Below, piece by piece: positions 13,701 to 63,266 of a DNA stretch of 64,000 bases (position 1 is its first letter; every line of letters starts with the position of its first letter). The DNA comes from Euglena gracilis (taxonomy: Eukaryota). The position numbers and the translations under genes were made by a program. The notes beneath the pieces are model-generated. The model did not search any database. It saw only the letters and a list, made by a program, of their open reading frames with translations, and was not told the origin of the DNA. The DNA is taken from NCBI GenBank assembly GCA_039621445.1, contig CP154954.1:12394716-12458715 (forward strand), in the 5' to 3' direction.

Positions 13701-16700
13701 GTCCTGCACCACATCCTGCAAAATTGGTCAAAAAGTGGTCAAAAAGCAGGCAAAAGTGGGGTCAAAGTGGTCAGAAAGCAGCATCAGAAAGCAGCAAAAG
13801 TGGTAAAAAAGTGGGCAAAAGTGGGCAAAAATGACCCAAACCCCCAAATTGGCAAAATTTTTCGGCAAATTTGGTCAAATTTTTAAAAATGCCCCGGATT
13901 TGACCATATGCCATACAACCTTTTTGTGTGTGTGAAATTGAATTATGCCTAAACGTGGCTCCCCAAAATGGCAAAATTATGCGGAAAAGAATGATGGGGG
14001 AAAATGAGTGTTTTCCCGTCATTTTTGTTTGGTGGTGGATGAGAGGGATAGAGCACACAGGAGGACTGCCAGTTGGCAAGTTGCTCACACCACCTGATTG
14101 ATGTTAAAGACTCTGTGACATCCACACAACTGCAGAAATGATCATATGATCATGTGCACAAATGCGCAAGTGGTTGGTGTGCGCAATTGCACACACCGAC
14201 CACTTAAGACCATCAAGAGCCTCCCATGTCAGCGTGTTTGGAGCAGGAAAATGAATGTAATGAACCCCCCCCCCCTATTATAACCCCTGGCTGATGGCTC
14301 CTTGACCCCCAAAGTTGACCCCCCCCTCCTCTGTTGGGCCCAACCTGCCCCCCCCACTTTTTTTTTTGAAAATACATTTTTTTGAAATAAATTTTTTTTC
14401 GGTTTGAAATACACAACGAGGAACGTTTTCCTTGAGAAATGCCTTTGTCGTGTGCTGTTCACAATCAGACGAGCACATTTCTGGTCCCCCGTCCACCCCA
14501 ATGGACACTCTTTTTTCCTTTTGCTTCTCCATTTTTTCCTGTCTGCATTATTCGCATTGTTTCCCATGATTCCATATGGCTGCTTACTGTTTGGAAATGA
14601 AAAAAAGTGTGATGTGGTTGGTTGGTGATGTGGTTTATTGGAATCACCCAAAGGGGGGGAGAATTTATGGACCCGATTTTTTTTGGATGATTCGTCCGGT
14701 TATCCCTAAGTCGACCTCCTCCTCTGTTGGGCCCAACTTGACCTAGGACACAGGGGTATTTTTCTCTCCTATTTCCTGTGTTGCTGGACCCCCTTCCCAA
14801 GAGCAATGGGGATATTTTTTTTTAAGAGCGGTTGGTGTGTGCAAATGCGCAAATCAACCATTTCTAATAGTTAATTTGTAAAATGGCGCATGTGGACCAA
14901 GATTTTAATTTTCAAATCATGAAAACAAGGACTTCCGTGGCAAGAGTGGCAATAGTAGGAGAGCAACGTCCACAAAGCGGGGCTGTTGTGCAGTATGTCT
15001 GAGAATCAAATAAAGCGGGTTGGGGTATTGCGCTATATGGCCTCCTGAACTCCGACATTTCCAAGGCACAACCATTCACAACCAATGTGCTGTGCCTCAT
15101 TTTTAGACTAATTTACTGGGGGTGAAGGGCACTAAATTGCTAAATCGTGTGTGGGGGGGTAAATGTGGACTGCATAATATGTTTTGTTTGGAACATCTGA
15201 AAATAAAAGTCCCAGAAAGGCATTTTAAACTGTTGCTTTCTGTTTCAGAGAACATTTTGTGTCATTTTTGGATCATTTTCTGCATTTTTTTTCTCCGCAG
15301 GATTATAGTTGAGCATTATACAGGGGCCAAAAAAATTGACCCCATAATCCTGCATAATTTTTTTTGCATATTTTTCAAGGTCAATATCTGACTCAAAGAC
15401 TGACTCAAAAACTGACCAAAAGCTTCCTCAGGCCCTCCAGGTACCTTTTTTTTTGTAGTTTTTGACTGCTTTCACAGTGAATGCCCTTTTGCCTCACAAT
15501 TTCGTCAATTTTTGTGTTTTCCCCGATGTTTCTGTTGCATTCTCTGTTTCATTCTCAGGCGGTCTACTTCACACTGAAGCATTTTAGAAGTTCTTTTCGC
15601 AATCACGCCAATTCTGAAACTAATTTTTGTGCTGGAGATTCACCCCCATTTTTGCTTTAATTTACACCCCTTTGCGCAATTGTACAAGCAACTTTTTTGT
15701 TTTTGTTTGCGCGATTGCGCAAATGCATCCTCACTGGGACCATACCCTGACCTGATTTTTTTGCTTATCAGAAATGGATGCATGATAGGGTTCCGTCCGT
15801 TATGATCCCGTATGATTTTTTTTATAATTGGGTGTCCTTTTTTGCATGTTTTTTTGAGTAATTTTAAAATTTTAGTGATTTTGCGTTTTTTCCCTCAGGT
15901 TTTAAGCATTTTCCAAGGCCAGGCTTGCGCAGTTGCCCCCCTCCCCCGTACCTGGTTTTTACAACTGAGCAAATGTAATTTTTTGTGATAATTGCAATTA
16001 TTTTTGAGTGTAAAAATGCAGCCATTTTGGCACACTTTTTTTTGCCACCCACAAACAAGCTTTTCAGGTGTAAAGCCTGAGACAACTTTAGGTGTAAAGC
16101 AGGGATAGAGCCATCTCCAGTCCAATGTCCCATTTTTCATAATTCCTCATAGTCCTGTTTGAGACCAATTTGGGTTGTTTTCGGTTCATTTTGGAGCCAT
16201 TTTGGGTCGATTTAGGTTAATTTTATTGGAACAATGAGGCCATTTTTGGGCTTTTCTGGGCAAATTTGGGGCTTTTTTTTTGGCATTTCAGGATAAAGTT
16301 GTAGGTTTGCGATTTTACATGAATGCGAACAACAGCAATTTTGTTCACTTTTACTCCGCGTGTTTATCATACTCCTGCATAATCCAGCACAATTTTTGAA
16401 AGAATGCTCCCACATTTCCCCCTGCACTAAACTCAATTTTTAAGGATAAAACCTCGAAGTGCAGTGCATTTTTGGTGTTTCAGAGGTTAGAAATAATTTT
16501 CTTTTCATAGGTTCAACTGCCGATGCCAAGAAGTTACTTCCCTCTATGTCCAACGACCTCCCCCTCCTGGTCGGAGCCTTTTCGGAGGGTTGTCAAAATT
16601 TTTGTCCAGGCGCGAAGTGCCGGGCCGAAAGAATTTTGTGTCCAAAATCGTCGAAAAATTGGCCAAAAATGTCATTTTTGCCAGTTTTTTTTTGGCAAAA

Positions 16701-62827: not shown

Positions 62828-63266
62828 CAGGCTTTTGCTTAAGGGATTGCAGTACCCCCCGGGGGGGGGGGTGGACTGCAGCTTGTCCAAATTTGGCTGG
62901 TGGGTTTTCTAGCAGACCCCCCCACCCCGGGGGGGGCTGCTAGCAGGGCTAGCTAGTGGAAATTTTTTTTCCAGTGACCGGCGCGAAGCGCCGAAAATTT
63001 TTTTTGGACCCCCAAAAATGGCCAAAAATGCCCGTTTTTGGCCATTTTTGGGAATTTTTGGAACAAAATCAGCCAAAAACCTGTTAAAAACCTCATTTTT
63101 CCTCCAGCGCGCAGCGCCGGAGGAAAATTTTTTTTCCAGTCCGGGGGACCCCCGGACACCCCCCCCGGGGGGGAGGGGGGGTCTAGCTAGTCCACTTTTT
63201 CCAGTGTCCAGCCGATTGGCTAGCCAGTACCCCCCCCCCCCGGGGGGGGCCTTAAGCAAAAGCCTG
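62828..63266. mobile_element. hAT-like MITE family C
   Basis: Perfect 17-bp TIRs caggcttttgcttaagg / ccttaagcaaaagcctg; TSD cttcccac. Confidence 0.9.

Follow-up and report, generated by a model that had tools for sequence, protein, structure and literature searches.

The 64,000-nucleotide stretch of Euglena gracilis contig CP154954.1 analysed here (the window) carries a short GC-rich hairpin motif that recurs inside small mobile elements. This sequence-specific palindrome, GGCGC(C)-GNA-(G)GCGCC, caps a longer, imperfect palindrome rich in A/T. Its carriers are non-autonomous DNA transposons of two classes, hAT-like and TA-bounded, and seven or more core-bearing families are divided between them. 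The reading we lean towards, with some reserve, is that the hairpin is an inherited cis part of mosaic non-autonomous transposons, that it comes from an old hAT lineage, and that it aids the elements that carry it.

The motif is greatly over-represented. With at most one mismatch allowed, GGCGC-GAA-GCGCC has 11 matches in the window, compared with 0.03 expected from dinucleotide-preserving shuffles, and 0 of 100 shuffles gave 11. A wider census, in which up to two mismatches and both stem lengths were admitted and the flanks were inspected alongside, gave 24 core sites in A/T-rich or mobile-element context, short, long and decayed forms taken together; 26254 and a GCC-loop palindrome at 24487, which lie in GC-rich, non-element surroundings, were excluded. 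The exact sequence GGCGCGAAGCGCC is present at 57417, 60420, 60524 and 62980, and on the minus strand at 47916, and short forms with one mismatch lie at 16609 and 18170. Short forms with an AAA loop are found at 36597 and 47324, and on the minus strand at 33487. The long form, GGCGCC-GAA-GGCGCC, is exact at 31730 and, reversed, at 52748, and has one mismatch at 46999 and 57584. GCA loops occur at 63106 (one mismatch) and 59459 (reversed), and decayed forms at 41464 and 39317. Every core site listed in the original prediction was recovered by this census, which added 16989, 17102, 38701, 47221, 50077 and 58569. The claim that the cores lie in A/T tracts was correct for most sites; family B (31730 and 39317), in a C/G context, is the exception.

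Is the loop as specific as the stem? Read in the purine-rich orientation, the loops of the 24 cores are GAA (12), AAA (9), GCA (2) and AAG (1). Among all the window's perfect hairpins whose loop is 3 nt long and whose GC-rich stem has at least 5 bp, the loop is GNA in 9 of 14 with a GGCGC-type stem and in 0 of 13 other mixed GC-rich hairpins (Fisher p = 0.0006). The intact loops are therefore GNA, as had been proposed, and this loop is far commoner on the GGCGC stem than on other GC-rich palindromes. The bare GCGN(1-2)AGC heptamer or octamer is not enriched in the window (41 observed versus about 72 in mononucleotide shuffles); the enrichment is confined to the class with the extended GGCGC stem and GNA loop. 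GCGNAGC itself is present in 10 of the 24 cores, all intact cores including GCGAAGC or GCGCAGC, and the remaining 14 are mostly AAA-loop or stem-decayed forms.

The carriers were grouped into families by flank alignment (Table 1). All hAT-like families (B, C and D2) have CAG-type ends, for example CAGGCTTGTGCT, CAGGGGTTTTTT and CAGGCTTTTGCT, and the 8-bp target-site duplication (TSD) is perfect (8/8) in all four delimited hAT-like copies, B1, B2, C and D2. Families A, D and E have TA/TA flanks and C-run-rich terminal inverted repeats (TIRs) of 12-16 bp or more. The prediction that one core is common to elements of two TSD classes with different ends, CAG-ended with 8-bp TSDs or TA-bounded, is borne out by these four perfect TSDs and at least three TA-flanked families, and the carriers do not align end to end as a single family. 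Family A has further copies at 18170 (A1, TA-flanked) and 58569 (A3, left side truncated), and family D at 16547 onward and at 47.2 kb; family C also includes degraded copies around 46999 and 57584, and a D2 relative lies around 36597. Within aligned copies the core is kept at the same place in 3/3 of A, 2/2 of B, 3/3 of C and 3/3 of D, and in D, D2 and E paired cores in direct order lie 103-126 bp apart within one element. Copy A2 is nested in a degraded family C copy (57078-57752), at a TA directly upstream of that copy's core, an insertion point read by comparison with the other two family C copies.

Table 1. Core-carrying elements and core sites in the window
Feature	Position	Strand	Description
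Family B copy 1	31580..31897		hAT-like; ends CAGGCTTGTGCT; perfect 8-bp TSD GACCCAAG
Family B copy 2	39171..39466		hAT-like; perfect 8-bp TSD GTCCCCTC
Family C copy	59307..59606		hAT-like; TIR CAGGGGTTTTTT; perfect 8-bp TSD ATTGGGTT
Family D2 element	62828..63266		hAT-like; TIR CAGGCTTTTGCT; perfect 8-bp TSD CTTCCCAC
Possible hAT-like element	52640..52851		212 bp; TSD 6/8 identical
Family A copy 2	57170..57571		TA-bounded; TIR CCTCCCCCCCCCCTTG
Family D element	16924..17288		TA-bounded; TIR TGTCCAACGACC; two cores
Family E element	60296..60709		TA-bounded; TIR AACCCCCCCCCAAATA; between two SIR2-family exons
Core	16609..16621	+	GGCGC-GAA-GTGCC, one mismatch; first core of family D copy
Core	16989..17001	-	GGCGC-AAA-GAGCC; loop flipped relative to collinear 16609 copy
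Core	17102..17114	+	GGTGC-AAA-GCGCC; second core of family D copy 16924-17288
Core	18170..18182	+	GGCGC-GAA-GCGCT; family A copy 1
Core, long stem	31730..31744	+	GGCGCC-GAA-GGCGCC; central in family B copy 1
Core	33487..33499	-	GGCGC-AAA-GCGCC; element boundaries not set
Core	36597..36609	+	GGCGC-AAA-GCGCC; D2-like element ~36448-36887
Core, decayed	38701..38713	-	CGCGC-AAA-ACGCC
Core, long stem	39317..39331	+	GGCGCC-AAA-GGCACC, two CpG-type transitions; family B copy 2
Core	41464..41476	+	GGCGC-AAA-GCACC; element boundaries not set
Core, long stem	46999..47013	+	GGCGCC-GAA-GGCGTC; family C copy, degraded ends
Core	47221..47233	+	GGCGC-AAG-GCGCC; first core of family D-like copy
Core	47324..47336	+	GGCGC-AAA-GCGCC; second core of D-like copy, 103 bp downstream of 47221 core
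Core, exact	47916..47928	-	Downstream body like family E, 71% over 89 nt
Core, decayed	50077..50089	-	AGCAC-AAA-GCGCC
Core, long stem, exact	52748..52762	-	Inside possible hAT-like element 52640-52851
Core, exact	57417..57429	+	In family A copy 2
Core, long stem	57584..57598	+	AGCGCC-GAA-GGCGCC; family C copy hosting A2
Core, decayed	58569..58581	+	GCCGC-GAA-GCGTC; family A copy 3
Core, long stem	59459..59473	-	GCA loop; stem reaches 11 bp; family C
Core, exact	60420..60432	+	First of two in family E
Core, exact	60524..60536	+	Second in family E, 104 bp downstream, direct orientation
Core, exact	62980..62992	+	First of two in D2
Core	63106..63118	+	AGCGC-GCA-GCGCC; second in D2, 126 bp downstream

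That the carrier families are repeated on a very large scale is shown by contigs of two DNA runs placed on 57000-63600: in run X1 the summed depth, which is not a copy number, is 5.9e5 to 3.1e6 in element bins versus about 110-190 in unique bins. A Pfam search (E <= 0.001) of 149 of the 152 stop-to-stop open reading frames (ORFs) of at least 125 aa in the window gave no match at all, and hence no transposase domain. The window-wide scan for TIRs and TSDs was swamped by microsatellites, and only its non-repeat rows were used. The hAT target consensus is NTNNNNAN as given in a passage of PMC3878927; 2 of 6 perfect TSDs (CTTCCCAC and ATTGTCAC) fit it at both positions, 2 fit only at the T and 1 only at the A. 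An element of another family, at about 58768-59040, has 'ttttcCGCGGaaaatttttttt' at its A/T-rich centre (58857-58880), which looks like a collapsed remnant of a core.

What do families with unrelated ends share besides the hairpin? Most pairs have only about 25-30 nt in common, and overlap between family A and the rest is limited to about 28 nt. A few pairs share more. The TA-bounded family E and the hAT-like family C are 73% identical over 63 nt, starting exactly at the core; the 47916 copy and E are 71% identical over 89 nt; and the TA-bounded D and the hAT-like D2 are 66% identical over 131 nt and 79% over 58-61 nt. These stretches point to families that share the core as mosaics, in which an A/T-rich body capped by the hairpin would have been joined to different termini. 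It had been suggested that the families might have acquired the core convergently, which seems unlikely, as about 60-130 bp of internal sequence adjoining it are common to families of the TA-bounded and the hAT-like class. Three collinear D copies differ at one position of their first core, which has GAA in one copy, TTT in another and AAG in the third. Two changes separate the TTT form from the inverted core, against four from the direct core, and it therefore looks like a loop flip (16609 versus 16989), a signature of intrastrand template switching. Rare contig variants lack 33-39 bp around the core, one of them with a 7-nt repeat at the joint, and such variants are typical of palindrome deletion.

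The original prediction also held that structure rather than sequence is conserved, and here the stem divides into two parts. The 24 cores were aligned with 8 flanking bases and the pairs counted. In the inner five pairs, 0 of 24 copies have a two-sided change, and there are 4 wobble and 10 unpaired cells. Departures from the inner stem are mostly CpG-decay transitions (GGTGC, GCACC, GTGCC), as is the loop change GAA to AAA, and the one-sided, disrupting changes found in 11 of 24 copies are mostly CpG-type and in no case compensated. Outside the inner stem three pairs covary between families (T-A to C-G), giving 15 two-sided cells; of 500 shuffles, 1 gave as many. The stem of families B and C is symmetrically lengthened (GGCGCC...GGCGCC), so that 5-bp and 6-bp forms altered on both arms do exist, as had been claimed. 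The claim thus holds in part: the outer stem covaries, but the inner five pairs are always GGCGC, with 0 compensatory changes in 24 copies. In nearest-neighbour predictions of single-strand DNA folding, the hairpin is in the minimum-energy fold of 6/6 segments (z -1.5 to -4.2).

Inside a family, core and flanks decay at about the same rate. Of 13 positions, 13, 12 and 11 are intact in the family A cores, whose flanks are about 77% identical, and family B cores differ at 2 of 15 positions in copies that are 88% identical. No constraint is visible on inserted copies, which speaks against a module selected by the host. Each family inherits the core and inserted copies lose it by CpG decay; we infer that it is part of the element and not a host element.

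The same module appears in a second organism. Metagenome contigs were scanned for the stem, any spacer of 3-5 nt and the downstream flank, 19 specified bases in all, and at least 119 loci were found. About a third of those listed have arbitrary spacers and are either GC-rich singletons or members of small groups that look bacterial, and by our own estimate chance gives roughly that third for 19 fixed bases in such a collection. The remaining loci belong to multi-copy families on contigs of 38-52% GC. Among the matches listed, the largest family (at least 35 loci) has loops GTTA (14) or ATTA (9), the second (at least 18 loci) has GAA (10), AAA (7) and ATA (1), smaller groups have GAA/AAA, GCA/GAA and GTA/ATA, and single loci have GAA, GCA, C-GAA-G and C-GCA-G. 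The metagenome families contain GCGAAGC, GCGTAGC, GCGCAGC, GCGTTAGC and GCGCCAGC, and every multi-copy family listed fits GCGNAGC or GCGNNAGC, including those with the four-base loops GTTA and GCCA.

The two large families consist of non-autonomous hAT elements, 0.9-1.7 kb long, that have 8-bp target duplications (8/8 in loci L030 and L094, 7/8 twice in L027, 6/8 in L058) and CAG-type ends, CAGGGGCGGAGACT and CAGGGGCGCCGG. They carry the core near one end only, 40-65 bp in, and inverted copies of a subterminal repeat flank it. Profile searches found no transposase domain in 62 ORFs of the metagenome loci. Exons on these contigs match rhodopsin-type G-protein-coupled receptor, carboxylesterase, mitochondrial carrier and double-stranded-RNA-binding families, so the host of both families looks like an animal. 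BLAST of the 119 listed loci against the window gave only core matches of 26-45 nt (16 high-scoring segment pairs); none of the window's abundant families is among these loci, which indicates a different organism. A PIF1-like helicase ORF on L094 (1279-1845, minus strand, E 7e-7) was considered as part of the core-bearing hAT element at 3574-5287 and rejected, since it lies about 1.7 kb outside it; this fragment is possibly a degraded Helitron-type remnant unrelated to the core. The same pattern was applied to prokaryotes as a control, with the first 120 loci listed. Among these matches GNA accounts for 8/39 three-base loops and TNC-type loops (mostly TTC, one TTT) for 9/39, GNNA for 4/37 four-base loops, and C-GNA-G for 0/44 five-base loops. 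The same stem and flank also occur in 17 viral contigs (L240-L256), where the loops are mostly GTAA (9) and C-GGA-G (3).

What might the hairpin do, and how did it come to be in so many families? Because hAT elements of an unrelated animal have the module a short way in from one end, the core is probably an old cis part of a hAT lineage. It would most likely have spread between families in two ways: by recombination or template switching in or close to the palindrome, and by the nesting of one element in another with later deletion. We infer that the hairpin may form in vivo and help the element. On unwinding of the DNA the mini-hairpin would close first and, once closed, would set the register for fold-back of the surrounding subterminal A/T-rich palindrome. 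The resulting hairpin or cruciform could then be used at transposition, either through binding by the transposase or an architectural protein or as a single-strand fold-back.

Several observations weigh against an inherited, helpful hairpin. A 110-bp hAT-like element at 46571-46680, with a 19-bp TIR and a TSD 7/8 identical, has no core, and an element can thus do without one. In canonical hAT and Tc1/mariner transposition the substrate is double-stranded DNA, which leaves no obvious place for a single-strand hairpin. The invariant inner stem yields no covariation evidence and its constancy could be explained by identity by descent alone; as for palindromic outer stems, inverted duplication can produce them mechanically, with no need of selection. 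Flanks of different families are only a little more alike than a reversed-sequence null (9.29 versus 7.56 downstream, 7.91 versus 7.39 upstream); with so small a mean excess the shared body depends on a few pairs, whose alignments are inflated by A/T-rich low complexity. The loop flip is single among about 70 comparable copies. Finally, the metagenome pattern fixed stem and flank, which made other stems invisible, and copies within a family are not independent.

One might think, then, that the palindrome is a passenger with no role, carried by a successful hAT lineage and spread by recombination among thousands of A/T-rich bodies, with GNA simply descending from a GAA ancestor. We regard this as possible but clearly less probable than a hairpin that aids its element. 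The invariant and uncompensated inner stem, the free decay of copies, the between-class homology that reaches beyond the core and the existence of a core-less element are all what a passenger predicts. It accounts less well for the loops of family founders, in which the middle varies (A, C or T; TT or CC in 4-nt loops) and the flanking G..A is kept, a retention that was judged apart from CpG-type G>A decay. Nor does it readily explain the symmetric lengthening of the stem in some families, the retention of the module in hAT families of two unrelated organisms, or the diversity of prokaryote loops on the same stem and flank (GNA 8/39 and C-GNA-G 0/44 among the matches listed). None of these points is decisive, because the inner stem lacks covariation and the outside search fixed the stem. 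The reading can also be pressed in the opposite direction, to a more ambitious proposal that we consider improbable: the GCGNAGC or GCGNNAGC mini-hairpin with its T-tract would be a conserved single-strand signal of eukaryotic cut-and-paste MITEs (miniature inverted-repeat transposable elements), in two superfamilies and more than one animal lineage, nucleating fold-back or marking a site for complementary-strand priming.

Three other explanations seem to us very unlikely. The original prediction suggested a host cis module, a binding site or a structural signal for nucleosomes, replication or a transcription factor, acquired by each family convergently. Strong enrichment, constant sequence and a position in bendable A/T tracts would suit such a site. 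The one-sided, uncompensated, mostly CpG-type changes at 11/24 inserted copies, a decay that tracks the flanks, argue against it; moreover, half-sites 3, 4 or 5 bases apart would not be tolerated by a double-strand dimer site, and the shared flanking homology contradicts convergence. An E2F-like site was rejected as well, since the cores match the familiar E2F consensus only imperfectly, and the AAA and long forms no longer match it. Could the hairpin with its A/T flanks (about 35 bp) itself be mobile, like bacterial repetitive extragenic palindromic (REP)-type sequences or a Helitron-style end? The location of cores in A/T tracts and the contig variants that miss exactly 33-39 bp, one with a 7-nt T-run repeat at the joint, might be so read, but the variants are a tiny share of depth (about 300-600 of about 3e6) and resemble palindrome deletions, the position of the core is constant in all aligned copies of families A to D, no target duplication borders it, and by eye there is no Helitron-type terminus downstream of the hairpin. 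An RNA-level role, in which transcripts would use the hairpin as a kind of terminator or as the tip of a small-RNA precursor, has in its favour the resemblance of a GC hairpin followed by a T-run to a terminator, and size-fractionated RNA reads that are 4-10 times commoner in one direction over element bins. No clusters of RNA starts or ends are reported in the 6.6 kb examined, however, and the GTTA loop fits the DNA mini-hairpin rule (GCGNNAGC) and not the familiar classes of stable RNA tetraloop.

Some other candidates were set aside on simpler grounds. A Helitron does not fit cores that are central or 40-65 bp from an end, in elements that have TIRs and TSDs and no canonical terminus downstream (by eye). 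Retroposition of the hairpin with a poly(A) tail would put the A/T run on the other side, and palindromic additions left as excision footprints would vary by site and not yield one constant stem.

MITEs are usually defined by their ends, the internal sequence being treated as filler, and here an internal palindrome is capped, in seven or more families, by a 13-15 bp motif whose physical properties are known to be exceptional. If it is functional, the motif provides a mutable handle on MITE amplification beyond the autonomous partners, and on a possible use of non-B DNA in eukaryotic cut-and-paste transposition. Should it prove a mere recombination joint, it still documents mosaic MITE families arising across superfamily boundaries. 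The single-strand signal, if true, would imply a single-stranded, replicative step in MITE amplification, and such a step might account for copy numbers in the thousands among elements that cut-and-paste enzymes move.

In its make-up the window resembles eukaryotic nuclear DNA; it has short exons and is rich in C-run/G-run palindromes and small repeated elements, and searches for tRNAs and Rfam families found none in it. Two exons match the Pfam family SIR2, at 59962-60165 (plus strand, profile 1-17, E 5e-4) and 62027-62158 (plus strand, profile 80-112, E 6.5e-10). The family E element sits between them and is therefore probably intronic, and the D2 element lies just downstream. At 1057-1091 there is a perfect palindrome with a 16-bp stem (CAGGCACTAACCCCCC-ATG-...), a pair of C-run element ends without a core. 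RNA reads over 6.6 kb of the window gave no clusters of RNA starts or ends, and over the gene they were too sparse for introns to be mapped. In the size-fractionated RNA run X24, reads with the first mate on the minus strand are 4-10 times commoner over element bins 57221-57441, 62304-62524 and 62746-63187; the ordinary RNA run X21 has no strand bias over element bins, and the X24 reads may stem from many copies. RNA pile-ups at 59325-59346 and 61454-61472 consist of poly-G/poly-C loose ends, with an 'opposite strands' joint linking both; as transcripts they were rejected, being by appearance homopolymer artefacts.

How does the core compare with known systems? Mini-hairpin DNA, as defined in a 2026 review by Kimoto & Hirao, has the sequence GCGNAGC or GCGNNAGC and contains a sheared G-A pair besides two G-C pairs; the folded strand is extraordinarily resistant to heat and nucleases and stable even in 7 M urea (PMC13037366). 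The natural cases described in those passages are primase or polymerase entry, priming or promoter sites on single-stranded phage and plasmid DNA (PMC13037366). The word stem 'transpos' occurs 0 times in the review (PMC13037366). Our literature search, which took in neither supplements nor Dfam/Repbase, found no paper linking mini-hairpin DNA to transposons, and the exact 13-mer was in no paper found. Intact window cores share with the mini-hairpin consensus the C-G closing pair and the G..A loop ends; unlike it, they have two to three extra G-C pairs and sit in eukaryotic transposon relics, and their stability is predicted. Phage G4-type origins, RSF1010 ssiA and phage N4 hairpin promoters, as treated in passages of the same review (PMC13037366), also have a mini-hairpin, which here is followed by a T-run. 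In those single-strand initiation signals the initiation region lies beside the hairpin on single-stranded DNA, whereas the window's case is one of resemblance only. We know of no single-stranded stage for hAT or TA-class elements.

The terminal repeats of parvoviruses and adeno-associated virus have short GC-rich arms, three-base loops of A or T only, and flip and flop forms. The window cores likewise have short GC arms and, between collinear copies, one loop inversion; unlike those repeats, they are internal to chromosomal elements and not at genome termini, and the flip is seen only once. The Helitron 3' hairpin, REP elements and intrinsic terminators are also short GC-rich hairpins in many copies, but the window hairpin is not near a Helitron-type terminus and its elements have TSDs and TIRs. 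Bacteria have the same stem and flank with GAA or TTC loops, though among the prokaryote matches listed the loops are diverse.

The hAT-like carriers resemble hAT MITEs in their perfect 8-bp TSDs, CAG-type ends, short length, lack of an ORF and inverted subterminal repeats; to our knowledge no described hAT family has an A/T-rich palindrome, subterminal or central, whose apex is a conserved GC mini-hairpin. The TA-bounded carriers resemble TA-targeting MITEs (Stowaway-like, Tc1/mariner-related) in their TA flanks, long TIRs, lengths of 365-414 bp and the insertion of A2 at a TA. They differ in having C-run-rich TIRs, and in sharing internal sequence with hAT-like families, which is unusual given the different transposases. 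The link between MITEs and a well-characterised mini-hairpin DNA structure, together with its occurrence in a second organism, is unexpected.

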